From: a virus
IMG/VR virus record: IMGVR_UViG_3300021356_000797
Location: 39,841 to 103,840 of that record
Length of the DNA stretch: 64,000 nt
Direction: 5' to 3' (one strand)
Positions 2,511 to 38,304 of this stretch are shown here, one piece after another. Made by a program: the position numbers and the translations under genes. The notes beneath the pieces are model-generated. The model saw nothing but the letters and a program-made list of their open reading frames with translations. It made no database searches and was not told the DNA's origin. Numbering within the stretch: the first letter of the stretch is position 1; each line of letters starts with the position of its first letter.

Positions 2511-3373
2511 TGGCAGATCTAATTAAATACAGAACGTTTGATCAACTCTTAGAAGATGTTAGCGTTGATTTCTCTGCGTATGCTTTAGAAGGTATGATAG
2601 AGCCTCAGCAGCTTATTAAGGTTGCTATGAAGGTAAACTTTGATTTGGGTTTACGTATTCAGAGAACTAAGCAGGTAATTCTAGAAGTAGAAAAAGGTAA
2701 AGTAAAACTACCTTCAGATTACTACTCTCTCAACTTTGCTTACATGACCGGCACATACAGAGTAGAAACTCAAATGCCATCAGGAACTGTTATTGAAGAT
2801 ACTATACTAGATGCTAGTAAAGTACAATTGGATGAGAACGGTTGTCCTGTAGATGGTAGTGTATGTGTAAATGATTGTGGAGACTATTACCAACTTATTC
2901 AAAAGAGTAAGACAGATGTTAAAATCTATGAGACTTTTGGTAAGATACGGGCAGTAGGTCAGGGAGTTATGGAAAGCTGCCCTAATGGACGGTGGACTAC
3001 AGAAGAAAACATTATGGAGATTCGTGATGGATTTATCTATACCAATTTTACATCTGGTAAGATTTATCTAAACTATCAATCTCAAATGGAAAATATTCAT
3101 GGTGAGCTTTTAGTAATGGATCATCCATTGGTTAATGAATACTATGAGTATGCTTTGAAGCAACGTATTCTAGAGAATATGATTTTTGCAGGTGAGCAAG
3201 TATCTCAACAACTTAATTTGATTGAGGTACGTTTACGTGCTGCAAGAAACAATGCTTTATCATTTGTCAATACTCCAAACTATGCAGAGCTGCAGAAGAT
3301 TTGGAAGATGAATAGAAAAGCACAGTATGACAAGTATGTCAACATGTTTAAGAGTACACCAACCATAAGGTAA
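2510..3373 (+). CDS. Tail tubular/ring protein (P22 gp4-like, crAss Ttub)
   Basis: 'GKVKLPSDYY', 'DGFIYTNFTSGKIYLNY', 'GELLVMDHP'; directly precedes the stabilisation protein. Confidence 0.7.
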   Translation: MADLIKYRTFDQLLEDVSVDFSAYALEGMIEPQQLIKVAMKVNFDLGLRIQRTKQVILEVEKGKVKLPSDYYSLNFAYMTGTYRVETQMPSGTVIEDTILDASKVQLDENGCPVDGSVCVNDCGDYYQLIQKSKTDVKIYETFGKIRAVGQGVMESCPNGRWTTEENIMEIRDGFIYTNFTSGKIYLNYQSQMENIHGELLVMDHPLVNEYYEYALKQRILENMIFAGEQVSQQLNLIEVRLRAARNNALSFVNTPNYAELQKIWKMNRKAQYDKYVNMFKSTPTIR

Positions 3374-12697: not shown

Positions 12698-12716
12698 ATA
12701 TGGTAGTCTGCTATAA

Positions 12717-12737
12717 TTTTTGTATATTATAAATGAG
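12717..12737 (+). promoter_or_regulatory. Putative phage late promoter (motif copy 2)
   Basis: TTTTTGTATATTATAAATGAG upstream of ATG 12753. Confidence 0.55.
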
Positions 12738-12752
12738 ATATCGTAACTAGTT

Positions 12753-16066: not shown

Positions 16067-16080
16067 ACCTTGAAGGTTTA
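16064..16080. promoter_or_regulatory. 17-bp palindrome, candidate operator
   Basis: TAAACCTT-G-AAGGTTTA is a perfect inverted repeat upstream of the late-promoter motif; a related site lies at 41321-41337. Confidence 0.4.
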
Positions 16081-16094
16081 CTAAACTTACCAGA

Positions 16095-16118
16095 TTTTTT
16101 AGTATATTGTATATATAG
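16095..16118 (+). promoter_or_regulatory. Putative phage late promoter (motif copy 3)
   Basis: TTTTTTAGTATATTGTATATATAG upstream of ATG 16125. Confidence 0.55.
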
Positions 16119-16124
16119 ACTAGT

Positions 16125-18967: not shown

Positions 18968-21900
18968 ATGGGTGTTCTGCCTACATGGTCATCAGCTGCT
19001 GCTGATAAAGCTAGAGAAACTTATAAAGCTCCTCAAGGTGGGGGCTTTTCTGCTAATTTAAATTCTCGTTTGTCTACTTATCAACAAGCAGAAATTCCTC
19101 AGCCTTTTAAATCTCCAGGTGCAGATTTATTTGATACGCAATCAGATATAGCATTTAGTGGAAAGCAGTTAAATGTAAAACGTTTTTATGAACATCCTGC
19201 ATATAGCCGTTTAGGATTTTCAGCTTTTAGAGATAATGATTCTTACTATAATAGTAAGGCTAGCTGGGTAGGAGATTTTAAAAGAGCCTTTAAACATTTT
19301 GGGCCAGGGTTTAGAGACGGATTTGTTTCTAATTATGCTGGCTTTGAAAGTTTAGTTGGAGGTCAGGCATTAACCCCTAGTCTATTAGATTATTCTAAGG
19401 GTAGAGAAGCTGAAGAAGCGGCATCTATTGCTATGTCTACAAGAGGTGGATGGAAACAGTCAGCCGTTAATATTCCTTACAACCTTAATTATACTGCAGG
19501 TATTATAAGCAGCATTGCCTTAGAGGATTTAGCACTTGTTGCAGCAGCACCTGGTACAGGCGGTACATCTTTAACTGGATTGCTTTTTAAAACAGGTAGA
19601 GATGTTGCTAGAGTAGGTAGTGCAATTGGTCAAGTAGCTAGAGGTGCAAGAGCTTTAGATAAAGTAGCCGATGCTAAGAAAGTGTACAATATGGTAAAAG
19701 GTACTGCTGTGCAAACTAGTAGACTTTTAATACCTGAAACAGCTACACAATTTGGTAAGTTCTATACCACTGCTAATGCTGTAGGAAGAGCCGGTAAGAT
19801 TGGAGAATCAACTCTTAATATGATAAGTACTGCTAAAGGTTTTGGTAGTATGTATCGTGATTTAAGAATGATTAACATGGCTATTGATGAGTCAAGTGTA
19901 GAAGCAGTTGGTGTACGCAATGGTCTAATGGATAGATATGTATCTGAGTTTAGTCAAAAGAATGGTAGATTGCCAAATGCTTCTGAGTATGCAGATATGA
20001 AAAAGAATGCAGATGAGGCATTAACTGCAGACTATTGGGCTAACCTTCCTGTAATTTATCTAACTAATAAACTAACTTTTGGTAATGCATCATTAGCTCC
20101 AAGGTTTATTAGAAACTATGCAGCTCCCATTAAAAACCAAGCGGGTAGATTAATTAGAACTGCTACTAAAGGTAAAGTTACTAGTGAGATTGTTGAAAGA
20201 ACAATGAACCCTATTAAGTATATTAAAAGGGCTGTTACTAATAGACAACTTGCTAAGGCTAATTTGTACGCAACTGCTAGATACTTTAAAGCAAACTTAG
20301 GTGAAGGTGTTCAAGAACTTTACCAAACTGGTGCGGCTACTACCTTTGAAGATTACTACTATAATCTATATAATAATCCAGCAATGAATGGATTTAAGTA
20401 CTATAAAGAATCTGCTAAAAGAGGAATTGGTACTTTATATAGTCAAGAAGGTTTAGAGGCATTTGCTGGAGGTTTACTTGGTGGTGGTTTATCTAATGTT
20501 GTAGGTGCAGGTACCAGGTTAGGTAGTGAGTTCTTTATGATGACTACTAACCCTGAGCAGTATGAAAAAGTTAAAAAGAATCAGAAGGAGCAATTAAAGT
20601 TTTTGAATGACTTTATTAATGAAGAGGGTAAGGATCCTCTAAAGTTTTTAGCTCCTGACTTAACAACTCTTGTAGATCTTATAAATCAGAATGGTACAGC
20701 ATATCAGTTTGCAGATGCTATGAATTTTAAAGGGGTGGAAGATATTAGAACTACCTCTTTATATCAAAAGATCCAGCAGCTACAAGCAAGTGGTTCTACA
20801 GAAACCTTTATAGATGCTATAGAGCAAATGAAATCTATGGAGGCTGAAGAAAAGATGGAGGCCTTGGGTGTAGATACTGTAGAGAAAGCTGATAAACTAT
20901 TAGATGTTATTAGTGAGCGTTCTAGAAACATGAAGTCTAATATTGAATATGTCAATAAGACTTATGAGAATCCTTACAATCCTAATCAGTTTAAAGTTGG
21001 TACTCCAGAAAGAAATGAAGAGATCTTAAAGCAGTTTGCATGGGAGCAGGCTAAGAAAGATTTGGCATTCAACTTTAGTCAGTTTAAAATTACAGCAGAT
21101 AGACTGGGTGAAATCTATAACTCAGCTGTAGAAGATGAAGCTGTTGCGGGCATGCTTAACAAGGATTTTTCTGTGCTGTTTAATACTACATTAGCTCAAT
21201 CTAAGAAAAGTGGTGTGCAGTTTGAAACCAGTTTAGAAAATGAAATTGGTTTTTTAGATACAGAGAAGTCTAATGCCCAAGCGGAGATTGCTAACATAGA
21301 TGAACAACTTACTACAGCAGATGAAGCGGGTAAGGAGCAATTAAAAACTCGTAAGAAACAGCTTCAAGAAAAGCTTAAGAGTATAGAAGGCAGATCTAAA
21401 ATACTTACTAAGTATGCTGGAGCAATAGAAAGAGTTAAGGCTGCAAGAGCTACTGTAGAAGAAGGAAAAGAACGTCCTTCAGAAGAAGCTGCTCTTAAAG
21501 ATATGTATGATGCTTTTAGAGAGTACATGCTATTTGTAGGTGAAGAAAATAACTCTCCTGTAGATGCTGTTAAATTGCAAGACACTTTTGGAAAGCTGTT
21601 AGATTTTATAGATGTAGCTGAAGACAATAGATTAGCAACTAATGCTATCACCATACTCTCAGATCCAAATGCAATACAAAGACTTAGTGATGCTCATTTT
21701 AATGGTATCAAGAAGCGTTTTGAATTACATGGTTCTTTGTCTAAACTGTTAGCTTTAGGCGTAGTAGAAAACAAGAGAACTAATGAGTTTATTGAAGCAT
21801 TAGAAGAGCTTGGGGTTGTTATTCCTTATGATCAAATGCAAGCATTGGTTCTTGAAGGAAAGACCCCCACTCAATATATTTCTGTTAACGAAGAAGATAC

Positions 21901-22747
21901 AGATGCTAATGGTTTTGTTATTGAGGGTAGCCCGTTATGGGAAAGAATCCAAGAAATAGCTGACCAATATGAAATGGGTAAAGCTGAAGCAGTAGAAGAT
22001 GTTGAAGAAGTTTCTCCTGCAGAGTCTGAAGAAGCTATGAAAGCTGAAGGAGAAGCTGAGGCTGAGGCTGCTGAAGAGGTTAAAGAGAAGAAGCCTTCTA
22101 TGACTGAGCAAGCTGCTAAGTCACAAAAAGCTACCAAGGAAGCTCAAGAGAAGCAAACTAAACGTAAGAAGACTACACGTACTCCTGCTAAGTATCAAGA
22201 GGTAAGCCTAAGAAAAGAATTAGGCGGGACTAAAGTTCTTGAGAAACTTGATGAAGACTTTGCTAAAGAGAATGAGAGAAGAAAAGAAGCTGGTGAAAGA
22301 CAGCAGACCTTTACTCAATTCATAAATGGTTTATCTAATATTGATAGTCTTGTAAAACAGGGTAGAAACCAAGCAAGTAAGATTAAAGAAAAACAAGCTT
22401 CAGAAAAGACTGTAGAAAGATATCAGAAACGTTTGGATAACGCTAAGACTATTGAGGATGTAGACCTTATAGAAATAGATATTCAGACTCTACCTATTAT
22501 GCCAGAGGATCTTCTTAAATTAGATTTCCAGAAAAGAAGAAATGAGATTATGGCTGAAGAAGCTAAGAAGAGAGGTGTTGAAAATGTACCAGAACCTACA
22601 CCTAAAGTAGAAGCACCTCAAGGAGAAAACCTAGAGCAAGCAACAGAAACTGTAGAAAGTATTGACTTCAACAAGATTAATACTGCAGAAGCTAGTGAGA
22701 AAGGTGGGGAAGTTACTGACGATGATATAAACAATATACTTTGTTAA
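18968..22747 (+). CDS. Large virion ejection protein with glycine-rich hydrophobic segments (crAss giant protein 1)
   Basis: 'AAAPGTGGTSL', 'GEGVQELYQ', 'AFAGGLLGGG' segments and coiled coils; only Cys is the last residue. Confidence 0.65.
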   Translation: MGVLPTWSSAAADKARETYKAPQGGGFSANLNSRLSTYQQAEIPQPFKSPGADLFDTQSDIAFSGKQLNVKRFYEHPAYSRLGFSAFRDNDSYYNSKASWVGDFKRAFKHFGPGFRDGFVSNYAGFESLVGGQALTPSLLDYSKGREAEEAASIAMSTRGGWKQSAVNIPYNLNYTAGIISSIALEDLALVAAAPGTGGTSLTGLLFKTGRDVARVGSAIGQVARGARALDKVADAKKVYNMVKGTAVQTSRLLIPETATQFGKFYTTANAVGRAGKIGESTLNMISTAKGFGSMYRDLRMINMAIDESSVEAVGVRNGLMDRYVSEFSQKNGRLPNASEYADMKKNADEALTADYWANLPVIYLTNKLTFGNASLAPRFIRNYAAPIKNQAGRLIRTATKGKVTSEIVERTMNPIKYIKRAVTNRQLAKANLYATARYFKANLGEGVQELYQTGAATTFEDYYYNLYNNPAMNGFKYYKESAKRGIGTLYSQEGLEAFAGGLLGGGLSNVVGAGTRLGSEFFMMTTNPEQYEKVKKNQKEQLKFLNDFINEEGKDPLKFLAPDLTTLVDLINQNGTAYQFADAMNFKGVEDIRTTSLYQKIQQLQASGSTETFIDAIEQMKSMEAEEKMEALGVDTVEKADKLLDVISERSRNMKSNIEYVNKTYENPYNPNQFKVGTPERNEEILKQFAWEQAKKDLAFNFSQFKITADRLGEIYNSAVEDEAVAGMLNKDFSVLFNTTLAQSKKSGVQFETSLENEIGFLDTEKSNAQAEIANIDEQLTTADEAGKEQLKTRKKQLQEKLKSIEGRSKILTKYAGAIERVKAARATVEEGKERPSEEAALKDMYDAFREYMLFVGEENNSPVDAVKLQDTFGKLLDFIDVAEDNRLATNAITILSDPNAIQRLSDAHFNGIKKRFELHGSLSKLLALGVVENKRTNEFIEALEELGVVIPYDQMQALVLEGKTPTQYISVNEEDTDANGFVIEGSPLWERIQEIADQYEMGKAEAVEDVEEVSPAESEEAMKAEGEAEAEAAEEVKEKKPSMTEQAAKSQKATKEAQEKQTKRKKTTRTPAKYQEVSLRKELGGTKVLEKLDEDFAKENERRKEAGERQQTFTQFINGLSNIDSLVKQGRNQASKIKEKQASEKTVERYQKRLDNAKTIEDVDLIEIDIQTLPIMPEDLLKLDFQKRRNEIMAEEAKKRGVENVPEPTPKVEAPQGENLEQATETVESIDFNKINTAEASEKGGEVTDDDINNILC

Positions 22748-22748
22748 T

Positions 22749-25700
22749 ATGGCTTTTTGTAATATAAAGACTAAACAGGCTCAAGGACTTGCAAACATTA
22801 TTGCAAAAGATGTAGCAAACAAAAGAAACGCAGGCACTCCTTACAATGTAGAGGAGGCTATGCGTAATGTCTACAATCTAATGATTGAGAATGGCCAAGA
22901 CAAAGATAGAGCTGTAACCATGGCAGCCTTAGTACCCAAAGCTGTAATTGCACAAGTTGGTCAGTATGCTCCTAACGGTGCCTACTTAGCTCCTATTCTA
23001 GGTAAAGTGGGTGAGCTGGTAAGTAAAGCCACAGACTTTAATTCTGTCATAGAAGTAATGGGTCTACAAGAAGAGTTTGCTGAAAAGTTAAATGATGTAG
23101 AACAAGCTCAAAATAATGAGATAGATGTAGAGTCTCAACCTCAGTCAGTTGAATTACCTAAAGTAGAATTAGTAGGTGGTATTCCACTTGTAGATTCAGG
23201 ATTAAGTACTACGGTATTAGAAATAGGTGACGCTGAAGGAGATCCAGCAGTAAAAGCTAATGGAGAATTTATTAGAAAGTTTATTCGCCTTGGTCAATTG
23301 CAGAGTAAAAACTTTTCTGAAGCTTATGTCTTAGATAAGATTTCTACTTACAAACTAGCATTGGTATCTTCAACTAAGATTCCTCAAGAGTCTAGAGTAA
23401 AAGCAGACGTTTATGGTCCTGTAGTATATGCATTTATTGATAGTCAGGGTAGAATTGTAACTGATGAAAACGGTCACACTCCTCACGCATTTGTAAGACC
23501 TGTTGAAAAAACTGAAGATGGTTATGTATTTAGAAAAGAGAAAAGTACCAGCAGACTTCAGATTAATAAGACAAACGCTAATAATTTAGGCCTTACTTTA
23601 GAACAGTTTGAAAAGAAAATTAAAGCTGAGGCTAGTTTCTTAAATAATGCTGCTAGAAGAATATCATCTTCTCCAGATACTATTATTCCACTAGAAGCTG
23701 TAAGAGGTACGCTTGGTGTAATAGCTAATGCTAAATCAGTTCCACTTAAAAGTATTCCTGATTTCCAACAGGAGTTTTTATTACCTGAAGGTATTGGATC
23801 TGGTACTGGTAGAATTGCTAACGTTAGCACTTTAAATAAAGATGGTAAGGTTAACGTTTATCAGGCGTTTGTATTTCAGTATCCTGGATATGATTATACA
23901 CTTCAAGCAAACGGTTTGTTACTCCGTGACACGGAATATGCCCCAGCAATCAAAGAGATTTTATTATCAAATGATTACACCCCTCTTCAGAAGAAGAACT
24001 TACTTTTTAATATTCTACAAAAGAACGTCCTTGATTTTGCAGATACTGGTGTAAAGATCCCATACTATGGTCCTAATAGTAAGGGTATCATGGTTGTTAA
24101 GGGTAAGAAAGCTATAGACTTGTCTAAGCCAGAAGAAGCTGCAAAACTTGTTGATGACTATATTAATAGAGCATATGTTAATGTGCCTATTGATTCTAAT
24201 CAACAGTATGAGTTTGATGGTCCTGTATTAGTAAGTACAAGTTCTAAAAATAAAACCTTTTTGGAGGGTGAAGATGGTACAAGATATGAATTTGAAAACG
24301 TAGTTAGTAAGTATGAGGTTGGCAAAATTCAAATGGTTAACCATATATACAATAATTTTAGAGTGTATGCTCCTACGGATTCTAAGGGTAACCTTATTAC
24401 CCCTAGTCCAGTAATTACATACAAGGCCCCTATAGAAGAAGCTCTTGCTACACCAGAAGTTTTTCAAGAAGAAAGTGTAGAGCAGATCCAAGAAGAATTA
24501 AAACTCTTAAAATCAGAACAAGCAGAAGGTAGTGCAAGTCTAGAAGATATCCTTAATCAGATTCCAGAGGACATGCCTTCTGATATGAATAAGGTATTTG
24601 GTAGAAAAAGAACCAGCCTGGATAAAGTAGATACTTTGTCTAGTGAAGCAACAGCAAAACAAATTGCTGAAGCTAAAGCTTGGTTTGAAAGTTCTCCACT
24701 ATCTAAAGTTATTCCTGTAGAGAAATGGTTTGAGATTGTAAACAGTGGTAAGGTTGCAGAATTTACTGCTAATGCTATTAAGTTGTTTGCTGGCTCTAAC
24801 TATACAGATCTTTACCATGAGGGATGGCATGGGTTCTCTCAGTTGTTCTTAACTAAAGCTGAGAAGGTTGCCCTATACAAAGAAGTAAGAAAGTTACATG
24901 GTAACATTACATTCTTAGAGGCAGAAGAATTACTAGCTGAGGATTTCCGTAAGTATCGTTTAAGTAATGGTACAATGGTGATGGATAAATCACCAGCTAA
25001 GCGTAGCATCTTTAAAAAGATTTTAGACTTCCTAAGAGCTTTGTTTGGTAACACTGAGACTAAGGTTCAGTACCGTGAGATGGTGGCTCAGGAGAAGGCT
25101 CTGCAAGTTATTAAGGAGTCTTATGACATGTTATATAGAGGAGAGTTTGAAGAACGTAAACCTAATATAGACAACTCATTCTTTCTTACTCTTAATAAAG
25201 GTGTAGAAGGAGCAGACGGTAAAGCGCTATCAGCTAAAGATTCTAAAGATATCTCTGATGCAATGGATTCTATTGTAGCTGGTATTATTAGAGACTACTC
25301 ATCTAGCCCTAAAGAAGTACTTAATAAGGAAGGAGCACTTCAGTCTCTTTATAATACTGTTAAGTTTAGACTTAGAGTGCAATTAAAACTTGCAAGCTCT
25401 GCTTCTAAAGTTGAAGACTATACTAAACTATCAAAGGAAGCTAAGTCTGATTTTATAGAGCAAGAGTTTAAATCAATTCTAGATAAGTTTGAAGATGTAG
25501 GCTTAAGAGATGAAAATAAATCTTATATTCTATCACAAGCTGAAATTGTATTATCTAAGCCTGTTGATAAGAACGCATATTACTCATTAGGTTTAGCCTT
25601 AACAAATTTTGGTGATACTGCTACCCTAAAAGATAATGCAGAAAGCACAATGCTTGGGTATCACTTTAAAACTTCAAGATACCTAGAGTCATTAGCTAAG

Positions 25701-28700
25701 TCAGAAGATATTACAGATCTTTTGGAGCTTGATATTGTAGATAGTGCTGATGATTACATGTCTTTCTATGATAAAGGTGGTAATGAAGTATCTGTTAAAG
25801 ACCTAGCAGATAATTCTGTATTGTATGCAGTACGTTCTATGAGACAGTACGATAAGTCTGGTAAAGTTATAAAGGACCGTTTTGGTTATGATAAGCTTGC
25901 TGACTTTGGTAAATCCTGGAATAGACTAAGTACAATTCTTAGAGAGTCTTACAGCATTGAAGATATGCTGGATAGAGTTAATTCAGAATCATTTAAAAAT
26001 AAAGCTTTCCAAGATCTTCAAACTGTATTGGGTAAAAATGCTGAGGCTAAAGATGATTACAAGTTTAGAATGCAAACATCTTTCTGGCAGGCATTTAATA
26101 AAGCATTTGTTCCTATATACGTAGCTTATACTACTACAGTTCTTTCTGATAAAGGTGAACTACAGCAACCTCTAAGTATTAGAGTAAAACGTGCTGAAGG
26201 AGAGGTAAGTTCTGTAGAAAAAGATCTTACCCGTAAATTTCAAGCTAATAAATCTCTACCCAATACATCTCAAGTTAATGGTACTAGAGTCCTTAATGTT
26301 ACAAAGGTCTTAGAAAAGTACAAAGGTATTACTGCAGAAAATGTTGTAGAGTTCTACAAAGACATGGGGGTTTTACCAAATGAGTTAGAGTCTTCTACAG
26401 TAAACTTCTTGTTAAGTGGAAATATACTAGTTAACACAAACTCTATGGTTGTTAACTTAAATAAGTTGGCAGCATCTAAAGAGGCAGATCTAACTACTGC
26501 AAATCCTATAAACTTTTTATCTACAGATCAAGGACTGTTCAGAGGGATGAGAAGCACCATAAAAAATATTGTAGAACAATACGGTGCTAGTGTAGGTGAT
26601 ACTGGATCATCAAGAAAACTTACTGCAGAAAGAACTACTCAGTTTGAAAGTTCTCTTAATAGTAGAGCTACAAAGATTGTCCAGTTATTAAATGGTGTAG
26701 AGAAGAATCTTGATGAGCTTCTTAACAGTCCTGCTACTGCTAATTTACATCCAGACAATAATCCTGCAATGGCTACCAATCCTATTATGAGATCTTTATT
26801 CATTATGGATAAGGAAGCACCAGGTTACAAGTCTCGTAAGACATCTAAAAACTTGTACTTGTTTAATGTAAGTGGGATGACTACAGATGTATCTGTTGTT
26901 AAATATGATAAAAACACTGGTGCAGATGTTCCAATTAGTAATACTATTAGAGGTACTAAGAATATTTCTCTTGATGAGTATACTAAATTAAATCAAGACA
27001 TTCATACTCTGTTTGTTCAAGGATATGTAGAAAACGTAAGAGCTTCTGATAAGAGTACATCATTAGCATGGAAGGTTTCTGGAGAGTCCGCTTACATTAC
27101 TCCAGCAGATGTAATAAACAAAACTTACCTAAGCAAGGCTACTAGAGCTGTGGTTAATATGCTGGCCGGAGAAATGGCTACTATTGCTAAGTATGCTGAC
27201 GCAGAGCTAAATGTGTTTGATGCTAAGGGTAATCCTATTAAAATGGATTCTTGGCAAATATTTGCTGATGTTACTGATAATGAAGGAAATGTAATTAAAG
27301 AAAACTTATTAGTTAATCCAGCAACTAAGGCTAAACTTAATAAGATAATTAAGTCTGGTAAAACAGATGCTAATGAAATAGCTAAGGAAATTCTAAAAGA
27401 AGATAGTGGACTACGTGAGGAAATTGAAAAAGGACTGCGCAGAAAAATTAAGGAAGAGTTACAAAATTTAACTGCTGTATTTGAAAAGAATGTAGAGCTT
27501 GTAGGTAAAGGAATGGCAGTTAGTAAAGAATTGAGATCTAAGATTTCTCAAAGAGCTGCTTTACCAAAAGATAGAAAGACTTTAGAAACTGCAATACTTA
27601 CAGCATTTATTACTGAAACTTTTATTCGTAATGAAGCATTCTTTAGTATTGCTAACGGTTCTTTAGCTAGTTACAGATCTGCAGATGATACTATCAAACG
27701 TAATACTACTACCTCAACAGGTAATCTATTCCGTTCTGATCAAGCTGCACAAGCTTATATTACTGCTCAAGGTAGATTACTAGAAGCTTCTTATAGTAGA
27801 AGAACTGGTAAGCCAGTAATGCCAAGAGATTACACTGGAGTTTTAAGAACTGCCATCTTAAAGGAAATGACTATTGATGGTAAAGAGCTTAACTCTGAAT
27901 GGTATGCACTTGCAGAAGAAGCTTTTAAAGCTGATGGGTTTAGTCAACAAGAGGTGGACAGTATACTTGAAGCTTACCGTAGCATGGATGAGGCAGATGC
28001 TCAGGCTTACATCACTATGGATACTTACAGACAATTAAGTATTGCAAGTGATGAATGGACTCAAGAGCAAGAGTATATGTATAACAAGCTGGTAGCTGGT
28101 GAAAACATTAATAACCCTCAGCAATACTTCCCTGTTAGAAAATATCAATACACTGGACCACTTCTTAATGCTGGTGCCCCAGTACAAGGTTTACACAAGT
28201 ATTCATTATTCCCATTAGTTCCTTCTGTTATTCAGGGTACTAACCTTGAAAAGCTTAATGAAGCTATGATGGAAGCGGGAATTGATTACGTTACTTATGA
28301 GACTGGTAGTAAAGCTGCAAGAGTTGGGCAACCAGTAGAAGCATTTGTAATTAATAAGGAAACTGGGGAACGTACTGTCCCAGAACAAACAGTTGAAAGC
28401 TTTAAGGAGAATGTTAACCTTATTCATACAGATTTCTTAAGAGATCAGTTGAGAATCAATTCTCAGTTTAAGGGTTCAGCTACTTTCTCTACTCAGTTTA
28501 GAAAGCTTCTTGCTGATGGTATATATGAAAACGGGGTTGCTAAGAATAAAGAGTTGGCCAAAGCTAATGAAGCATTCCTTAAAAACATTGATGACCTTAT
28601 TGCATATGAGACAGCTCTTCTAGAAAAAGAAATAGATACTAAGGATAAACTAGTTGCTCTAATTAAAAGAGAGCTTGAAAGAAGAGATGTAGAAGACTAT

Positions 28701-31538
28701 AAGATTGAGGCCATTGATATTGATAAAGATGGTAATCTTAAATACAATTTGGATGCCCTTCCTGCAGCAGCAGAGATGGAAAAGATTCTGAATGGTGTTG
28801 TAAACAGAAGACTTATTAGAGCTAAGCTTAAAGGTGAGTCTTTGGTTCAGGTTGCATCTACAGGATTTGAGAAAGTAGAGTCTTCAAATGATCTAAGATT
28901 TTACAGACCTGGACAAGCTGCTCAAGTAAAGATTGCCCTACAAGGAGACTTTACTAAGCTGTTGCTAATGAATCATCCAGATGGTGATAAAATTGGTAGT
29001 CTAGAGCGTCTCAATGCTTTGCTTAAAGATGAGACTTGGGTAAAGAAAAACCAAAAGCTTATTACTATTACCGGTGTACGTATTCCTGTACAGGGTCTTA
29101 ACTCTATGGAGCTATTTGAAGTAGCAGAGTTTTTACCGCCTGCAGCTGGTAATGTTATTGTAGTACCAACTGAAATGGTAGCTAAGGCTGGATCTGATTT
29201 TGACATTGATAAGCTTACAATGTACTACCCTACAATATTTGCAGCTAAAAAATCTAAGGGTAAAAAAGCAGAGATTCTTGATGACAAGCTTATTAATAAT
29301 CTGCTTGAGCAAATAGGAGAAGCTCCACTAACACAACTGGAAGCTTCTGAGTACACAGTAGGTTTAGATAATAACGGATCTAGTAAGTTTAAGAATAACA
29401 TTATATCACTAGCTAGAGATATCTTGTTGCATCCTGATAACTTTACTAAACTGATTAGACCTATTGCAACAGATTTGGTTAAGGAAAATTCAGAAGCTTA
29501 TAAAGAACTAGAAGTTAGTGAAGAAGATTTAGCTAAGTCTGCAGTATTAGACTACAGTTACAACCTTAAGAAGCAGCAAGAAAATTCTGTTGGTAAAAGA
29601 GCGTTGGGTATTAGTGCTAAGGGTAATACCTATAACACAATGTTCCAAAAATTATCAGATGGTTTGGCAAATGAGTTTGCATACCATTCAGACTTTAAGG
29701 CCTTTTATGGTGTTCCTTTTGTAACTTTAGATATGGCTGACAGAGCCTATGATGAAAAAGGAGTATCTGTTAAGTATACTGTATTTAGACAATCTGATAT
29801 AGCATTCCCTTTTGGTAAGATTGGTGACTTAAAAGATTCAGAAGGCAAACATTACAAGTCAGATATTATATCTCAAATTATCAACGGTCACGTAGACGTT
29901 GCTAGTGATTCATGGATCTTTAATATTTCTGCAGATGATGTAACTACACCATACTTACTTAACCTTATTGACTTAGGTGTAAACTATGATTATGCAGTAA
30001 GATTATTAAATCATCCTTTGATTAGAGAATACCTAGATACTTACAAAGCATTTAAGAAGAGTGAGTTGACAAGAGCTGTTTCTCCAAAGATGATGGAGGA
30101 CTATACGGTAATTAAAATTCTTCTTGAAAAGCATCTTAATGAAGATTACGTGGCAGTTGCTGCACTGCGGGATAAGAAAACTGGTATGATTAGACTAGGA
30201 CCAGATGGTAAACCAATGCTAAAAACTCCTAGTACTAGCGAATTATTTAGCATAGTTGATGCTAATAAAGCTACTAAAACTTTAACGGTAGATGAGCTAA
30301 AAGATCCTTCAAGTGTAAAACCTCTTATGGAGTTTATGAAGTTTGTGTATTACTCTAAACCTCTTAAAGCTGTAAGGTTAAGTACAGATGTAGATACAGG
30401 AAGAAAAGCGGCTAGCTTTATACAAGCTGCATCTGAATCAGAGAATATATTTAAGTTAGAATCAAGCCCTATTACAGGACCATTAGTTACAGAGTTATTG
30501 TCTAAGAATGTTTTAGGAACTTTTGTGGATGTTAAAAATTTCCAAATGACTGCTTTCCAAAAGCTGTTTGGATTTAGAGCGGATCCTCTCTTTATGAAGG
30601 CCTTAAATACAGTTGTAAACGATACAGACCTAGCTTATGATAAAGAGGCAAGAGAAGTATTTGTTAAGGCTAAAACTAATGGGTTTGTATCTCATTTAAT
30701 TGATAAGATTAACTTCCCATATACTGCAGATAATTTTAGTAAAGTAAAGTCTTACAAAGGTATTCCTGTAAACTTTGTAAAATTTGAGGGGGATCTTAAA
30801 AAGAATTATGCACTATCAAAAGACGGTGTTATTAATATAGATCTAGCTGTTTTCCAGAGCTATGTTAGAGGTACTATGAGTAAGTATTCTCTTACTCAAA
30901 ATCAAGTTTATTCTTTCTTATTAGAATCAGAATATATAAAGGCTACATCTAACCTTACAGGACAAGAAGCTCTTGATCAAGCTTTGTATAATATTGTAGC
31001 GCCTACACATCTTACTGACTTTACTAATCCTAATAGTGTAGCTCAGAAGTTCCAAGAGATGATGGCTGATCAATCTGCCATAGAAGCATTAGAGGGCTAC
31101 AGTATTACTGATGATCTTATTATTTATGACTACCAAGGAGGTAAGATGGTAGGTATTAAAACAGATAGGGCTAATGTAGAAGACATGGAACGTTACCATG
31201 CGGAGATAAAGCTTCTTCAAGAATCTACTAATTCTTTGGTGCGTGAGTTCTTTACAAGATTACCTGAAGTAGTAATGTCTGTAGAAGGATTTAAGAATGG
31301 TCCGTTCTCACTAATTAATGTTGTACCGTTTGATCAAATCTCTAGGAAAGCTGACCTAGCTATCAGAGAGTATCAAGCTTTAAGTGAGGAAGAAAAGCAA
31401 TTCTTAATTAATGATTATCTTAGTAATGAGCCTGTTGCTGTTGAAGATACCATAGTAACTGAAGAAATGTCAGAAAAAACTATTGAGTTAATGACTGACA
31501 AAGAAGTAGAAGAATTTATTAAAAAGTGTAAAGCATAA
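22749..31538 (+). CDS. Virion-packaged DNA-dependent RNA polymerase (phi14:2 gp66-like) with N-terminal zincin domain
   Basis: 'RIPVQGLNSM...GSDFDIDKL' (DFDID at 29196-29210) is the crAss-type catalytic motif; HEGWH at 24816-24830; 2929 aa. Confidence 0.9.
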   Translation: MAFCNIKTKQAQGLANIIAKDVANKRNAGTPYNVEEAMRNVYNLMIENGQDKDRAVTMAALVPKAVIAQVGQYAPNGAYLAPILGKVGELVSKATDFNSVIEVMGLQEEFAEKLNDVEQAQNNEIDVESQPQSVELPKVELVGGIPLVDSGLSTTVLEIGDAEGDPAVKANGEFIRKFIRLGQLQSKNFSEAYVLDKISTYKLALVSSTKIPQESRVKADVYGPVVYAFIDSQGRIVTDENGHTPHAFVRPVEKTEDGYVFRKEKSTSRLQINKTNANNLGLTLEQFEKKIKAEASFLNNAARRISSSPDTIIPLEAVRGTLGVIANAKSVPLKSIPDFQQEFLLPEGIGSGTGRIANVSTLNKDGKVNVYQAFVFQYPGYDYTLQANGLLLRDTEYAPAIKEILLSNDYTPLQKKNLLFNILQKNVLDFADTGVKIPYYGPNSKGIMVVKGKKAIDLSKPEEAAKLVDDYINRAYVNVPIDSNQQYEFDGPVLVSTSSKNKTFLEGEDGTRYEFENVVSKYEVGKIQMVNHIYNNFRVYAPTDSKGNLITPSPVITYKAPIEEALATPEVFQEESVEQIQEELKLLKSEQAEGSASLEDILNQIPEDMPSDMNKVFGRKRTSLDKVDTLSSEATAKQIAEAKAWFESSPLSKVIPVEKWFEIVNSGKVAEFTANAIKLFAGSNYTDLYHEGWHGFSQLFLTKAEKVALYKEVRKLHGNITFLEAEELLAEDFRKYRLSNGTMVMDKSPAKRSIFKKILDFLRALFGNTETKVQYREMVAQEKALQVIKESYDMLYRGEFEERKPNIDNSFFLTLNKGVEGADGKALSAKDSKDISDAMDSIVAGIIRDYSSSPKEVLNKEGALQSLYNTVKFRLRVQLKLASSASKVEDYTKLSKEAKSDFIEQEFKSILDKFEDVGLRDENKSYILSQAEIVLSKPVDKNAYYSLGLALTNFGDTATLKDNAESTMLGYHFKTSRYLESLAKSEDITDLLELDIVDSADDYMSFYDKGGNEVSVKDLADNSVLYAVRSMRQYDKSGKVIKDRFGYDKLADFGKSWNRLSTILRESYSIEDMLDRVNSESFKNKAFQDLQTVLGKNAEAKDDYKFRMQTSFWQAFNKAFVPIYVAYTTTVLSDKGELQQPLSIRVKRAEGEVSSVEKDLTRKFQANKSLPNTSQVNGTRVLNVTKVLEKYKGITAENVVEFYKDMGVLPNELESSTVNFLLSGNILVNTNSMVVNLNKLAASKEADLTTANPINFLSTDQGLFRGMRSTIKNIVEQYGASVGDTGSSRKLTAERTTQFESSLNSRATKIVQLLNGVEKNLDELLNSPATANLHPDNNPAMATNPIMRSLFIMDKEAPGYKSRKTSKNLYLFNVSGMTTDVSVVKYDKNTGADVPISNTIRGTKNISLDEYTKLNQDIHTLFVQGYVENVRASDKSTSLAWKVSGESAYITPADVINKTYLSKATRAVVNMLAGEMATIAKYADAELNVFDAKGNPIKMDSWQIFADVTDNEGNVIKENLLVNPATKAKLNKIIKSGKTDANEIAKEILKEDSGLREEIEKGLRRKIKEELQNLTAVFEKNVELVGKGMAVSKELRSKISQRAALPKDRKTLETAILTAFITETFIRNEAFFSIANGSLASYRSADDTIKRNTTTSTGNLFRSDQAAQAYITAQGRLLEASYSRRTGKPVMPRDYTGVLRTAILKEMTIDGKELNSEWYALAEEAFKADGFSQQEVDSILEAYRSMDEADAQAYITMDTYRQLSIASDEWTQEQEYMYNKLVAGENINNPQQYFPVRKYQYTGPLLNAGAPVQGLHKYSLFPLVPSVIQGTNLEKLNEAMMEAGIDYVTYETGSKAARVGQPVEAFVINKETGERTVPEQTVESFKENVNLIHTDFLRDQLRINSQFKGSATFSTQFRKLLADGIYENGVAKNKELAKANEAFLKNIDDLIAYETALLEKEIDTKDKLVALIKRELERRDVEDYKIEAIDIDKDGNLKYNLDALPAAAEMEKILNGVVNRRLIRAKLKGESLVQVASTGFEKVESSNDLRFYRPGQAAQVKIALQGDFTKLLLMNHPDGDKIGSLERLNALLKDETWVKKNQKLITITGVRIPVQGLNSMELFEVAEFLPPAAGNVIVVPTEMVAKAGSDFDIDKLTMYYPTIFAAKKSKGKKAEILDDKLINNLLEQIGEAPLTQLEASEYTVGLDNNGSSKFKNNIISLARDILLHPDNFTKLIRPIATDLVKENSEAYKELEVSEEDLAKSAVLDYSYNLKKQQENSVGKRALGISAKGNTYNTMFQKLSDGLANEFAYHSDFKAFYGVPFVTLDMADRAYDEKGVSVKYTVFRQSDIAFPFGKIGDLKDSEGKHYKSDIISQIINGHVDVASDSWIFNISADDVTTPYLLNLIDLGVNYDYAVRLLNHPLIREYLDTYKAFKKSELTRAVSPKMMEDYTVIKILLEKHLNEDYVAVAALRDKKTGMIRLGPDGKPMLKTPSTSELFSIVDANKATKTLTVDELKDPSSVKPLMEFMKFVYYSKPLKAVRLSTDVDTGRKAASFIQAASESENIFKLESSPITGPLVTELLSKNVLGTFVDVKNFQMTAFQKLFGFRADPLFMKALNTVVNDTDLAYDKEAREVFVKAKTNGFVSHLIDKINFPYTADNFSKVKSYKGIPVNFVKFEGDLKKNYALSKDGVINIDLAVFQSYVRGTMSKYSLTQNQVYSFLLESEYIKATSNLTGQEALDQALYNIVAPTHLTDFTNPNSVAQKFQEMMADQSAIEALEGYSITDDLIIYDYQGGKMVGIKTDRANVEDMERYHAEIKLLQESTNSLVREFFTRLPEVVMSVEGFKNGPFSLINVVPFDQISRKADLAIREYQALSEEEKQFLINDYLSNEPVAVEDTIVTEEMSEKTIELMTDKEVEEFIKKCKA

Positions 31539-34500
31539 TGCAAGCGTGTCCTAATGTATCATCTCCTCAGTGGAGACAGCTAGTAAGTGTTGTAGGTGAA
31601 ATGGAAGCTTATAGAGACTTTATGACTCATGGTACTATCCGTGATGTTGCCTCTGTACTAATGTCTGTTAAATCTAGAACTCCAGAACAGAATGCTAAAA
31701 TCCAAAGAGCCAGTAGTATTATTGAGAATTCTATTGTAGAATTAAATAACACAATGGCGGCGGCAGGTTTACATAAGTTAGCTGGAGAGATCTCTAATAA
31801 TCTTGGGGTAGCCTATGAGACTGTTAGTGTACAGGATGCATATGAAATTCTTCAAGAAGCAGATACTAAGTACAATGGAGAGCCTTCATTCTTCTATCAG
31901 GGTAAAGTCTACTTTGTAAATGCAATCCTTAATAAGGACATGGTTCTGCATGAGTTTTCTCATCCATTGGTAAGAGCTATTAAGAATGATAATCCAGCTT
32001 TATTTGATAAGCTTTATCAAGAAGCTATGACTACTCCAGGAGTAGCAGATATTATTAGTGAGAAATATTCTGATCAATCTGTAGAAGCTCAGCAGGAAGA
32101 AGCTATTGTAAGAGCAATGGCTTTAGCTAAACCAGAGGGGGGCTTTTGGAAAAGAATTGCATACGCTTTAAAGCAGCTACTAAGAAAGGTATTTGGAAGA
32201 CAGGTTAAGGTTAGTAATCTATCAAAGGATACTACACTTGCTGATCTATTTCAAATGATGCAGACTGAAGAGTTTAACATTGACTTTATAGATAGCAGCA
32301 ATGATAATGTAGTAGGCTTTATTAGAGAGCAAAAGACCCTTAATGATTTTCTAGCTAATGAGGCTAGTTCACCTAAAATAGAAATCTTACTTCAAGATCT
32401 GCAGACATTAAATAATCATGCTGCAAGATTGGTAGAAGATCCTCAAGTTGAAAAAGCTATTGGTGAGTTTTTAGAAACAGAAGGAGGACGTTATATTTTT
32501 GATGAGATAGCAAGAGAACTGGGTAAGTCTAAACAGTTTAATAAAGAAGCTGAAAAGTATATTAAAAATGAAAGACCAATGCCTGCTGATTTAGCATCAT
32601 TGGTATTAACTAGAAACCTAAATGTACTCTCTAATAGTATTGCTCAGCTTGATGTACTATTAAAAAATCTTGGTGAAGCTAGTGTGAAGCTTAGTAGTGA
32701 TCCAAGTCAAGCAGAACTTATAGAGACTCAAGCTATTTATAAAATAGTACAGGGTATTCAAGTATGGGCTGGTAGTCTAGAATCATTGATGAGAGAAAAT
32801 AAAGTTCCTCCGGGTAATGAAGTTAGACAAGAGGTTGGACGTATTGGTCTAACAGCTCAAGAAATTGAAGCAGAGGTTAGAGATATATTCAAAGAGTTTG
32901 CTATTGACTTCTTGTATGAAGAAAATTCAGATATAAGAGAACAGTTAGAAGCTTACTATGATGAGAAGTTAGCTCAGCTCAAAAAGGAAAAAGCCGCAGG
33001 TAATAATGTAGATTCTAGAATTAAAAGACTTCAAAAGCAGAGATCAGAAAAGCTTTTGACTAGAGAGAATCTAAGAAAGATTTTATCAGGGGAACTTGGT
33101 GATATTAATATTGCTGGAGCAATGCTTGAGAACTTCTTGCAAAGTCCAGATCCAGTAATTGGTGGTTTTGCATCTTGGTATAGAAGACAAGCTTACAAGG
33201 CTCAAACAAAAATGCAAGCTCAAACTAATGAGTTTATACAAAAGGTTTTACCTGTATTAAAGGAGGCTGGTTATAATCCAAACAATCCTCAATCATTCTT
33301 CAGACAGATTTTGTTCCTTGATAAAACTGTGAGGATGAAAGCTACTGAGGATGAAATTATTGGAGAAGAAACTTATCAATTAGAAGAGTATGAGGTATAC
33401 ACTCTTTTAAATCCTTACAAGAATTACTTAGCTGACAGAAAGATTCTTCAGGAGAAAATTGAAAGAGCTCAGATTATTGATGATGTAAAAGCTCTGCAGG
33501 ATCTCTATCAACAAAGAGAGGAGATGGATAAGAACTTCCATAGAAGATACACTAAAACTTATTACGATGCCTTTGAAGAGTACAATACTCCTGTAGGTAA
33601 AATTGCCCGTCAAAAACTGGATGACCTTTATAATGAGTTAACTCAGATAGATGATGAGATTAATGGATATGATGATATAGACATTACGGATGAAGACTTT
33701 ACAAGAAAGAAGTTGGTGCTTAGAGAAATCCGTCAGCTTTATTCTGAAGTAGATATCTATGGTAATAAGAAGAAAGGGGAAGATCTTGAGATTGCTCAGC
33801 TACTTAAAAGAGTTAGAGAAAAGAGTCAAGACTTTTATGAGTATAATGAGATTCCGGGTTTATTTGATGTTGCATATAATAACTTTTTAGAAAGTATTCA
33901 GGATGTAGAGTTTGGCTCTGAAGAGTATGATACTCTTATTAATGACTGGTTGGAAAGTAACACAGAGGTTGCAGTAACAGATGATTACTTTGCGTTGGTA
34001 GATCAAATCCTTACAGAAATAGAAGACCTACAAAAACAACTAGGTATGGAAAGTGAGTCTGTTAAAAAGACTTACGATACCATTAGGGACATCAGTAAAG
34101 GTTTCCGTGATTCTAGTAATGAGGTAGAGGCTACAGCTATTACTCCAGAAGCACAGAAGAAAGTAAAAGATCTTCAGCAGAAGTTGCTAAACTTTAGAGC
34201 TGAGATGGTTAAACTTAATGGACTTACTCAGGCAGAGAGTGATAGGTTAACGGAACTTTTAGAAAAGAAAAACAAAGAAGGAAGAATAGATAGAGATGAA
34301 ATGCTAGAGATCCGTTCTTTGTTTGACAAGAAAAAAGCACAGGGTAAAGATCCTGCGTTACTTAAAAGATTGTTTGCACTATATGCTACACTATCAGAGT
34401 TAAGACAAACAGAACCTACTCAATACTACGCAGATGCTATTAGTGCACACCTTTCTAGAATTAAATCAGAAGGTACAGTGCCTGGATTATTTGGTGGAGC

Positions 34501-36955
34501 TTTTGCATTAGCAGACAAACTAGTGCTTACCAAGTCAGATGTTACAGAGCTAATGGAGGATTCTATCTTTGTTAATACTATCATGCAAGATAGAGAGTTT
34601 GCTAAGTGGTATAACCGCAATCATATTGTTAACAAGAAGAAAGGTACTGTTGAACGTACAGCTCTGTGGAATGTAAAACGTCCTGCAGATAGTCAATTCT
34701 ATAAGACAATGGTTCTTCCTACTGGAGAAGAAATCATGAGGGTTCCTAATAGAACTTTCCAAGAGAGAGTTATAAAGGAGGAATATATTAATGATAGAGT
34801 AATAGGTGAAACTGTTGATGTATGGGGTAACTATTTACCTGATCTTTCTGTTAAGAATAATCCTTATAGAAACGATGAATACTTTAAGTTGAAGAAAGAA
34901 AATCCTTCAATGTTTAAAGCACTGAAAGCACTTTCTGATTGGCATTTATCTAAACAAGAAGGCCTTAATGTAACAGCTAGATTAGGATACCAGATTCCTA
35001 GATTTAGACCGGATAGATTAGAAAGACTTCAAGAGCTTAGTAAAGCGGGAGCTCTAGGTAAAGCTATTGATGATGCTAAAGAAAAAGTTTTAGAGAGTGT
35101 AGATGATATACAAGAAGGTTACAACTTTGACCAAAGACAGTTAGCAACATTTGGTATTATTGATGATAGCTTATCTGAAATTCCTATTTATGGTGTAGCT
35201 AAGTTAGATAGCCCTAACGTTTCTCTTAATGTTATGGATAGCATTCTTAGATATAATAGTTCTGCTATTATGCAAGAGATGCATATTGAAACAAGCCCTA
35301 TTGCTCAAATGCTAATGAGTGTTGTAGAAGGTGTAGATGAGAGTACTAGCTTAAAAGATCTTACTAAGATAGATAGACAAATGCTTAAGAGAACTGGTCA
35401 GGTTGTAAACAGATCTTATAAAAAGATTTCTAAGTATGACTCAATCAGATCTATGGCTCTTACAGCATTCTACGAGAGAGAATATTTGGGTAAGCGTCAT
35501 GCTGAAACACCAATAGATAGAGCTGCTCCAGGTTTTAGAAAAGGTTATAGGTCTGCCCAAAAGCTTACAGGTATGGCAATGAGGTTAGCTTCTACATCTT
35601 TCTTTGCTGTAAACATTCCGTCCGCATTAAAGAACCGTTTTGCAGCTGTATTACAGAATAATGTTGAAGCGGTAGCTGGTGAAGTAATGACACCAGAAGG
35701 ATTCTTGAAAGGTAAAGTAATGGCTAAAAAAGCTATTGCTCAAATTAGTTCTACAATTACTTCAGATAAAGTAAGAGGTAAGCACGTTCAGATTGCGCAG
35801 ATCTTTGATATTGATGGGCAGTTGGATAAGCAGAGAGGCGCTGTATCAAGAACGTTTGCAAGAGATGCAGTATCACTAAGCTGGTTGTTCTCTCCACGTA
35901 AGTTATTACAGATGGATGGTACTCTAGAGCTATTGTATGGAATGCTACATAGTAAAACTATAGAGCTTAAAGATGGATCTAGAGTTACATTGGGGGATGC
36001 ACTAGAACTTAAAGATGGTCAACTACAAGTAAGACCTGATACTAAAGAAGACTGGTCACTAACTAGTGATAACTTTATTAAGTTCCGTATTCTATACCAA
36101 GGTAAAATGAATAGGCTTCAGGGTACTTACGATGCTATTGATCAACCTTTATTTGCTAGATATCTTGTAGGTAGAATGATGTTGTTCCTTAGAAAGTATT
36201 TTATTTCTATGTTCATGCACAGATTTGCAAGTGCAAGAATTCAGTATGATACTAGACAGATGGAAGAAGGATACTACAGATCTGGTCTAAGATTTGTAAG
36301 CAATCTTGTAAAAGCTTTTATTAATCAGTCTAGACATGGAGGTCCCTTTGCAGAGTTTGATAGAAACACTGCTTTAGAAAGACAAGGTGCTAAAAGAATG
36401 GGAGCAGATATGTTACAACAGATAGTTCTTTTAACTGCTTATAAAGCATTGATGAAAGTTCTATTTGGATATGATCCTGAATCAGATGATGATGATGAAA
36501 GAAAAACGGCATTGTTACGTAGAGGATCAGGGGCCCTGCCGTTACCTTTAACGAGTTCTAAATATGATTACAATCCTGTTGGCTGGTTCCAGCTGCATGC
36601 TATTAATCAAATGATGCAGGTACATCAAGAAGCTGCTACATTTACACCCCTAGCTTTAGATGGAAGCTCTCCATTAGCAGGATCTATATTAGAAATGTTT
36701 ACGTCTCCATATAGCGCTATTGCAGCACCAACAGTTAGTAGAGGTATGGATATATATAGTTTAGGAAGAAAGACTATGAGAGGTGATAGAGGAGCTTATT
36801 ATACTCGTGATGTAGGTCCATGGATGTGGCAAAAGCAGGGGTCAAGTAAGATGGCTGCAGAAACTTTAAAATTTATTGGATTAAATGGTAAGACTGTAGA
36901 TCCCGCAAATGCTATTGTTCAGTGGCAACAAGGTCAAAAGCTACGCAAGAGATAA
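31538..36955 (+). CDS. Large virion ejection protein with N-terminal zincin-like domain (crAss giant protein 3)
   Basis: HEFSH at 31949-31963 followed by 'EEAIVRA'; long helical body; 'MMLFLRKYF' C-terminal region. Confidence 0.7.
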   Translation: MQACPNVSSPQWRQLVSVVGEMEAYRDFMTHGTIRDVASVLMSVKSRTPEQNAKIQRASSIIENSIVELNNTMAAAGLHKLAGEISNNLGVAYETVSVQDAYEILQEADTKYNGEPSFFYQGKVYFVNAILNKDMVLHEFSHPLVRAIKNDNPALFDKLYQEAMTTPGVADIISEKYSDQSVEAQQEEAIVRAMALAKPEGGFWKRIAYALKQLLRKVFGRQVKVSNLSKDTTLADLFQMMQTEEFNIDFIDSSNDNVVGFIREQKTLNDFLANEASSPKIEILLQDLQTLNNHAARLVEDPQVEKAIGEFLETEGGRYIFDEIARELGKSKQFNKEAEKYIKNERPMPADLASLVLTRNLNVLSNSIAQLDVLLKNLGEASVKLSSDPSQAELIETQAIYKIVQGIQVWAGSLESLMRENKVPPGNEVRQEVGRIGLTAQEIEAEVRDIFKEFAIDFLYEENSDIREQLEAYYDEKLAQLKKEKAAGNNVDSRIKRLQKQRSEKLLTRENLRKILSGELGDINIAGAMLENFLQSPDPVIGGFASWYRRQAYKAQTKMQAQTNEFIQKVLPVLKEAGYNPNNPQSFFRQILFLDKTVRMKATEDEIIGEETYQLEEYEVYTLLNPYKNYLADRKILQEKIERAQIIDDVKALQDLYQQREEMDKNFHRRYTKTYYDAFEEYNTPVGKIARQKLDDLYNELTQIDDEINGYDDIDITDEDFTRKKLVLREIRQLYSEVDIYGNKKKGEDLEIAQLLKRVREKSQDFYEYNEIPGLFDVAYNNFLESIQDVEFGSEEYDTLINDWLESNTEVAVTDDYFALVDQILTEIEDLQKQLGMESESVKKTYDTIRDISKGFRDSSNEVEATAITPEAQKKVKDLQQKLLNFRAEMVKLNGLTQAESDRLTELLEKKNKEGRIDRDEMLEIRSLFDKKKAQGKDPALLKRLFALYATLSELRQTEPTQYYADAISAHLSRIKSEGTVPGLFGGAFALADKLVLTKSDVTELMEDSIFVNTIMQDREFAKWYNRNHIVNKKKGTVERTALWNVKRPADSQFYKTMVLPTGEEIMRVPNRTFQERVIKEEYINDRVIGETVDVWGNYLPDLSVKNNPYRNDEYFKLKKENPSMFKALKALSDWHLSKQEGLNVTARLGYQIPRFRPDRLERLQELSKAGALGKAIDDAKEKVLESVDDIQEGYNFDQRQLATFGIIDDSLSEIPIYGVAKLDSPNVSLNVMDSILRYNSSAIMQEMHIETSPIAQMLMSVVEGVDESTSLKDLTKIDRQMLKRTGQVVNRSYKKISKYDSIRSMALTAFYEREYLGKRHAETPIDRAAPGFRKGYRSAQKLTGMAMRLASTSFFAVNIPSALKNRFAAVLQNNVEAVAGEVMTPEGFLKGKVMAKKAIAQISSTITSDKVRGKHVQIAQIFDIDGQLDKQRGAVSRTFARDAVSLSWLFSPRKLLQMDGTLELLYGMLHSKTIELKDGSRVTLGDALELKDGQLQVRPDTKEDWSLTSDNFIKFRILYQGKMNRLQGTYDAIDQPLFARYLVGRMMLFLRKYFISMFMHRFASARIQYDTRQMEEGYYRSGLRFVSNLVKAFINQSRHGGPFAEFDRNTALERQGAKRMGADMLQQIVLLTAYKALMKVLFGYDPESDDDDERKTALLRRGSGALPLPLTSSKYDYNPVGWFQLHAINQMMQVHQEAATFTPLALDGSSPLAGSILEMFTSPYSAIAAPTVSRGMDIYSLGRKTMRGDRGAYYTRDVGPWMWQKQGSSKMAAETLKFIGLNGKTVDPANAIVQWQQGQKLRKR

Positions 36956-38122: not shown

Positions 38123-38304
38123 CCTGGACGAGTGTACGTATGGTATACTTGCTGATGTCCTTGGTGTTATTCACTGGATGGGTGACACGTACTTGGGACA
38201 TTGTAGGTTTTGTTATTGTAATGTTACAGGTTGGTGTATGGACGAAGTTCTGTCCAAGCAAGTGGGTGTTTGAAAAGTTAGGTTGGAAAAAGACTGAGCT
38301 ATAA
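38062..38304 (+). CDS. Small membrane protein, YgaP/DUF2892-like (start may be 38140)
   Basis: Two TM helices then 'TKFCPSKWVFEKLG'; TAATG coupling to the kinase. Confidence 0.6.
   Translation: MEKILSKIKSSVAILLTNVVTWTSVRMVYLLMSLVLFTGWVTRTWDIVGFVIVMLQVGVWTKFCPSKWVFEKLGWKKTEL

Follow-up and report, generated by a model that had tools for sequence, protein, structure and literature searches.

Why should three adjacent giant proteins of a virus carry cysteine (Cys) only at the ends that face one another? The question is raised by a 64,000-nucleotide stretch of viral DNA (positions 39,841 to 103,840 of IMG/VR virus record IMGVR_UViG_3300021356_000797; the whole stretch is referred to here as the window, and coordinates are those of the window unless a contig is named), in which genes A, B and C follow one another and B is predicted to encode a virion RNA polymerase (RNAP). 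From comparative sequence evidence we propose, with a probability of roughly 0.68, that head-to-tail disulfides join A, B and C into one linear chain of ~673 kDa, and that internal Cys residues are selected against in these proteins as ejected cargo. The genes and the Cys codons in question are as follows:

18968..22747, plus strand: protein A, 1259 amino acids (aa), 139.8 kDa, first member of the proposed chain.
22749..31538, plus strand: protein B, 2929 aa, 327.5 kDa, predicted crass-type virion RNAP, middle member of the proposed chain.
31538..36955, plus strand: protein C, 1805 aa, 206.0 kDa, zincin-motif protein, last member of the proposed chain.
22742..22744, plus strand: TGT codon of Cys1259, the final residue and sole Cys of A, with the TAA stop next.
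22758..22760, plus strand: TGT codon of Cys4 of B, an invariant column in alignments of 18 and of 43 homologs.
31527..31529, plus strand: TGT codon of Cys2927 of B, the third-last residue and an invariant alignment column.
31547..31549, plus strand: TGT codon of Cys4 of C, its sole Cys, invariant in 44 aligned homologs.

The translated proteins A, B and C, 5,993 residues in all, contain exactly four Cys. A preliminary description of this DNA, made by eye, had placed them at the last residue of A, residue 4 of B, the third-last residue of B and residue 4 of C, and had reported no Cys at the free ends (the N-terminus of A and the C-terminus of C) or in the cargo open reading frames (ORFs) at 14114-16066 and 16125-18965; all of these coordinates and counts are confirmed, and the programmatic count reveals no internal Cys that had been overlooked. 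The same description had called the ring and muzzle proteins Cys-rich, but at 1.4% and 1.0% Cys, respectively, they are close to the genome average. Non-cargo ORFs in the window contain 1.04% Cys on average and the cargo block from 8162 to 36955 contains 0.084%. At 1.1% Cys, ~66 would be expected in 5,993 aa (Poisson P(<=4) ~2e-23). For the window alone, and taking a total of four as given, the probability that each of the four facing ends has one of them within its 4-residue zone is ~5e-12. The A, B and C genes abut or overlap at their junctions (TAAT ATG; TAATG), which is the one feature favoring a nucleotide-level origin of the pattern, with Cys encoded, for example, by translational coupling signals.

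The pattern is preserved in relatives of all three proteins. Among 120 protein-database homologs of B (24-100% identity, 2,800-4,800 aa), ~105 contain two Cys and no more, at residue 3-6 and at 1-6 residues from the end, and most of the exceptions look like truncated or miscalled N-termini. Cys is the last or second-last residue in 14/14 homologs of A, and all 21/21 database homologs of C have a single Cys, at residue 3-6. In alignments, the columns of C4 and C2927 of B, and that of the N-terminal Cys of C, do not vary and match those of the catalytic residues in conservation. We also scanned this locus in 80 related viral contigs, scoring a C-terminal Cys in A within the last 10 residues. In A this Cys is present in 63/63 cases and an N-terminal one is absent in 59/59; in B the counts are 67/68 for an N-terminal Cys and 74/75 for a C-terminal one; and in C an N-terminal Cys is present in 70/71 and a C-terminal one absent in 51/53. 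Internal Cys residues number just 25 in 548,074 residues. Comparison of the orthologous gene triplet across the 80 contigs thus shows conserved terminal Cys in a near-universal topology, (-,C)(N,C)(N,-), where each bracket gives the Cys-bearing termini of one protein. The exceptions L037 and L058 look like start-codon miscalls, and the B homologs seemingly without an N-terminal Cys (P0030, P0039, P0046, P0110 and P0116) are probably, for the most part, start miscalls or truncated calls of the same kind. Dulem virus 41 and phi14:2 have the standard three-gene pattern; the feature is order-wide, and the window is an ordinary member of the pattern and no special case.

Both TGT and TGC are used for the terminal Cys, and the spacing at the junctions varies from -19 to +30 nucleotides, so it is the protein sequence that is constrained, rather than the DNA at the gene boundaries. 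The pattern is also kept down to ~25% identity, and in a genome in which A lies on the other strand (see below). Chance is excluded as the source of the Cys pattern, a point settled by its conservation across >100 homologs, and a junction feature at the DNA level is refuted by conservation, codon variety and variable spacing, such that the probability we leave to either is close to nil.

Rearrangements of the module serve as natural experiments. Contigs L042 and L049 each encode an extra protein (754 aa and 583 aa, respectively) between B and C, and this has Cys at both termini, giving the topology (-,C)(N,C)(N,C)(N,-). In the Suoliviridae phages cr109_1, cr118_1 and cr1_1, A and B are fused in one giant of 4,300-4,900 aa, in which the C-terminal region of A runs straight into B (by BLASTP); there is no Cys at its N-terminus or at the junction, there is one 3-4 residues from its end, and C, encoded next, has its Cys at residue 3-5. 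In the Intestiviridae (p-crAssphage, crAss002, cr11_1 and Rudgehvirus) it is B and C that are fused, in that order; these giants start with 'MSC' or 'MAC' and have no C-terminal Cys, and the A-type protein preceding them has Cys second from the end. All of the fusions follow the order A to B to C. In PhiCrAssBcn1, a crAss001-like phage, the A-type gene is on the opposite strand and the topology (-,C)/(N,C)/(N,-) is retained. The number of facing Cys pairs thus equals the number of gene breaks within A-B-C in every architecture examined, as is expected if each pair replaces a peptide bond.

Two annotation matters touch these fused genes. The annotated starts of the B+C genes of p-crAssphage ZA (L003 16632-28907) and crAss002 (L004 17106-29843) are apparently over-extended by 21 and 32 codons, respectively, and an internal methionine in each gives 'MSC...', matching the N-terminal Cys rule of the family. 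The annotated coding sequences of cr109_1 (L086 2058-26814) are interrupted by many in-frame stops under table 11 (the 4328-aa giant, for example, has 70), which would fit the reassignment of a stop codon in this Suoliviridae phage; the terminal Cys pattern still holds.

The Cys residues lie within short conserved motifs, M-x(1-4)-C-[STAP]-[LIN] at N-termini and [DE]F[MI]KxC or DPFKC at C-termini, and B and C contain HExxH protease-like motifs. Both observations would suit terminal signals for packaging, proteolytic maturation or ejection of each protein alone, with the apparent pairing a coincidence. Such signals would not account, however, for the absence of an N-terminal Cys from every A and of a C-terminal Cys from almost every C, or for the joint loss of both Cys at fused junctions; moreover, the flanking residues vary widely and the Cys is invariant. 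We therefore regard independent terminal signals as quite improbable.

A further question is whether the partners are neighbors. The terminal Cys could instead form homodimers (A-A, C-C, or polymers of B) or tether the proteins to the portal, the inner capsid or a tail cargo protein, and many inter-protein disulfides are indeed present among the structural proteins of the crAss001 virion (PMC10172136). Four observations favor neighbors. N-terminal and C-terminal Cys are equal in number in the three-gene, four-gene, A+B|C and A|B+C sets; fusion removes exactly the two facing Cys; the fusion order is always A to B to C; and hetero head-to-tail pairing is seen for the same signature in the phage A4 structure described below. 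Homotypic or other-partner pairing accommodates the balance rule and the fusions more poorly than head-to-tail pairing does, and we consider it unlikely, although it is the strongest of the alternatives.

The A4 example comes from an unrelated phage. In the cyanopodophage A4 (Anabaena phage A-4L), cryo-electron microscopy shows a disulfide between Cys1715 of gp27 and Cys5 of gp26, pre-ejectosome proteins in which the C-terminal helix of gp27 is inserted into a cleft of gp26 and locked there by the bond (PMC12002296, PNAS 2025). Inspection of the A-4L genome shows that Cys1715 is the sole Cys of gp27 (1717 aa), and Cys5 that of gp26 (1114 aa), the product of the next gene. This sole-Cys signature is identical to those of A Cys1259/1259 with B Cys4 and of B Cys2927/2929 with C Cys4. 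Homology of the chain proteins to gp26 and gp27 was rejected (BLASTP E>0.1; hhalign probability 0.4% and 0.1%), and by sequence the A4 pair is an analog of the crass pairs and not a member of the family. It also differs from the proposed chain in being a single link between two proteins arranged in a fivefold ring, with no RNAP and no chain of three or more members, and the A4 paper does not generalize the terminal disulfide (PMC12002296).

Closer relatives share the topology itself. In Cellulophaga phage phi14:2 the sole Cys of gp67 is its last residue, gp66 has Cys at 3 and 2179 only, and gp65 has Cys at 3 only; PhiCrAssBcn1, a relative of crAss001, likewise has the Cys topology of the window. 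The genes for phi14:2 gp67-gp66-gp65 and crAss001 gp47/gp50/gp49 form the same module, adjoining the muzzle and ring genes, although phi14:2 gp66 and B are just 20-25% identical in the RNAP core. For phi14:2 and crAss001 neither PMC10172136 nor bioRxiv 10.1101/2020.03.07.982082 mentions the terminal Cys or a link between cargo proteins.

The Schitoviridae offer a second comparison, in which a giant virion RNAP and its companions show the same extreme suppression of Cys as A, B and C. The N4 gp50 virion RNAP and DEV gp71/gp72/gp73 are wholly Cys-free, which has been attributed to passage through the envelope (PMC11445570). They differ from A-B-C in having no Cys at all, whereas A-B-C lack internal Cys but retain four conserved terminal ones. 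The N4 virion RNAP is a T7-like single-subunit polymerase and belongs to another enzyme family than B.

Several points weigh against a head-to-tail disulfide chain. Virion assembly takes place in a reducing cytoplasm, and gut crassviruses inhabit anoxic environments. From sequence alone the partners cannot be identified, and head-to-tail links look no different from homotypic ones (A-A, C-C) or from links to other virion proteins. The giants of gut Intestiviridae and Suoliviridae have a few internal Cys, which are thus tolerated there, and one of these, Cys 2319 of cr11_1, lies near the estimated B/C fusion junction. Lastly, the Intestiviridae encode a smaller cargo protein with a lone Cys near its C-terminus and no obvious N-terminal partner, which the simple pairing rule does not explain and which shows that not every terminal Cys fits a neighbor pair:

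L003 5738-8125, L004 6411-8084 and L091 4202-6475: Intestiviridae smaller cargo protein, 557-795 aa, sole Cys 2-11 residues from the C-terminus.

In p-crAssphage, crAss002 and Rudgehvirus we found no protein whose N-terminal Cys would match it, and its Cys may form a homotypic bond or join a different partner.

The reducing and anoxic settings also bear on the chemistry. Facing Cys could join the termini by other means, such as a shared metal ion or another thiol-based bond, or could stabilize a non-covalent clasp, and the comparative evidence supports apposed termini without specifying a type of bond. One Cys per partner is too few, however, for a usual zinc or iron site, there is no conserved histidine or second Cys near the termini, and the only solved example of the signature, in A4, is a disulfide. 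A link of this sort appears to us to be improbable, slightly more so than pairing with non-neighbors and less so than independent terminal signals. In a Pfam scan of ten of the window ORFs (four CxxC-containing and six others) we found no thioredoxin- or DsbA-like gene; two of the four CxxC-containing ORFs have no redox match and two have no match at all. Genes annotated as thioredoxin (TRX) are present near the cargo module in p-crAssphage (L003 31079-31372 and 32089-32358) and Rudgehvirus (L091 29492-29767).

Head-to-tail disulfides remain our preferred reading. The preliminary description had proposed that terminal Cys pairs link A, the RNAP and C in gene order, and this is partly supported: the near-universal topology, the inserts with Cys at both ends, the fusions without Cys pairs and the A4 precedent argue strongly for a head-to-tail link, with its chemistry and function putative, and the reference to gene order has to be qualified, given the opposite-strand A-type gene of the crAss001-like phage.

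The identity of the proteins bears on what such a chain would do. Three motifs in B and C are relevant:

24816..24830, plus strand: HEGWH, B residues 690-694, HExxH zincin-like motif, with H, E and H invariant.
29196..29210, plus strand: DFDID, B residues 2150-2154, RNAP catalytic metal-binding DxDxD motif, invariant in 43 homologs.
31949..31963, plus strand: HEFSH, C residues 138-142, invariant HExxH zincin-like motif near the N-terminus of C.

A phmmer search against PDB matches B residues 1723-2440 to residues 949-1683 of 6VR4 chain A (E=1.2e-19) and yields no other PDB match for B, hence no relation to N4-type polymerases is seen; by tblastn the central part of B is 20-25% identical to subunits annotated as crass RNAP. 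The DxDxD (DFDxD) motif has been described as the catalytic metal-binding motif of these RNAPs (bioRxiv 10.1101/2020.03.07.982082), and a crassvirus gene context is present, with ring, muzzle and LysM/SLT cargo genes upstream of A-B-C. Homology, motif and context together identify B as a predicted Crassvirales virion RNAP of the phi14:2 gp66 type. No PDB relative of A or C was found by sequence, none of the three proteins has a Pfam or PHROGs match, and a megablast search of the region against a phage collection gave no match. For A, matches are detectable only within its own clade, and no sequence match to phi14:2 gp67 or crAss001 gp47 was obtained. By sequence and position, A-B-C corresponds to phi14:2 gp67-gp66-gp65 and crAss001 gp47-gp50-gp49, with A as the positional counterpart. 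A zincin domain is reported in gp65 orthologs (bioRxiv 10.1101/2020.03.07.982082), with which the HExxH of C agrees. The phi14:2 record annotates gp67, gp66 and gp65 as detected by tandem mass spectrometry (MS/MS) proteomics, and the crAss001 structural atlas lists gp45, gp46, gp47, gp49 and gp50 as cargo proteins, with their presence in virions shown by mass spectrometry (PMC10172136). By analogy, A, B and C are probably ejected cargo proteins of a crAss-like podophage, packed in the capsid. As B and C both bear an invariant HExxH, the proposed chain would bring two putative metalloprotease domains alongside the RNAP.

The remaining genes of the cargo module and the genes preceding it are:

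2510-3373: ring protein, Pfam CrAss_Ring_1.
3375-8162: muzzle protein, Pfam crAss_MUZ.
8162..18965, plus strand: upstream Cys-poor cargo genes, without terminal Cys and hence outside the proposed chain, comprising the four that follow.
8162-12697, plus strand: 1511-aa cargo protein with DUF5872, LysM and SLT lytic transglycosylase domains.
12753-14114, plus strand: 453-aa cargo protein with DUF5872 at its start, plus DUF5754.
14114-16066, plus strand: 650-aa cargo protein, Cys-free.
16125-18965, plus strand: 946-aa cargo protein, Cys-free.

The 1511-aa protein has just two Cys, at 91 and 106, and residues 224-227 of the 453-aa protein form a CYAC motif. Beyond the downstream end of the cargo module, a 299-aa ORF at 38304-39203 encodes a histidine-kinase-type ATPase domain (HATPase_c, E=2e-13), which is unusual for a phage late region.

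A disulfide chain would suit the route that these proteins are expected to take. The cargo proteins are thought to traverse the tail partly unfolded, and disulfides do form in crassvirus virions, where they stabilize the tail and portal-vertex proteins of crAss001 (PMC10172136). Non-covalent contacts would be lost on partial unfolding, and only a covalent tie would hold the proteins together during passage. In the mechanism that we propose, internal Cys are under negative selection, since cross-linking within the chain would create a loop or branch unable to pass a narrow channel, and a single Cys persists wherever a terminus adjoins a neighboring protein. Within virions, A Cys1259 would pair with B Cys4 and B Cys2927 with C Cys4, the disulfides standing in for peptide bonds in a linear chain, A-S-S-B-S-S-C, of 5,993 residues. 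With the links placed only a few residues from the chain ends, partly unfolded A-B-C could thread the narrow tail channel as an unbranched polymer, and the reducing cytoplasm of the host would then separate A, B and C. Possible purposes of the link are control of stoichiometry, ordered ejection and delayed activation. Disulfide formation by these Cys in crassvirus virions, ordered co-ejection and reductive release are what we infer from the pattern; fixed stoichiometry, sequential pulling through the tail and release by reduction, as envisaged in the preliminary description, would be consequences of the linkage.

Previously known were the depletion of Cys in ejection proteins of N4-like phages and, in A4, one terminal disulfide joining two such proteins. 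Relative to the accessible literature, what appears to be new is a putative multi-link chain that includes an RNAP and in which Cys pairs and peptide bonds would be interchangeable; no description of the terminal Cys of Crassvirales cargo proteins was found in open-access papers and bioRxiv. The broadest form of the proposal is that throughout the Crassvirales these disulfides are surrogate peptide bonds, that the RNAP pseudo-polyprotein is threaded as a single polymer, and that it is cut only by the reducing cytoplasm, such that separation, and possibly the activation of early transcription, is redox-timed; we offer this tentatively, at somewhat less than even odds. If true, gene fission and fusion within the module would be nearly neutral, a Cys pair and a peptide bond being interchangeable. 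The chain model would explain together the extreme depletion of Cys and the retention of terminal Cys, and would link the crassviruses mechanistically to the single disulfide of cyanophage A4. The terminal-Cys rule helps annotators of crass genomes to recognize chain members and to place start codons correctly, and the occurrence of one facing Cys pair per gene break, and none per fusion, provides a concrete model, cheap to test, of how the proteins could be co-ejected in order and the RNAP delivered stoichiometrically.

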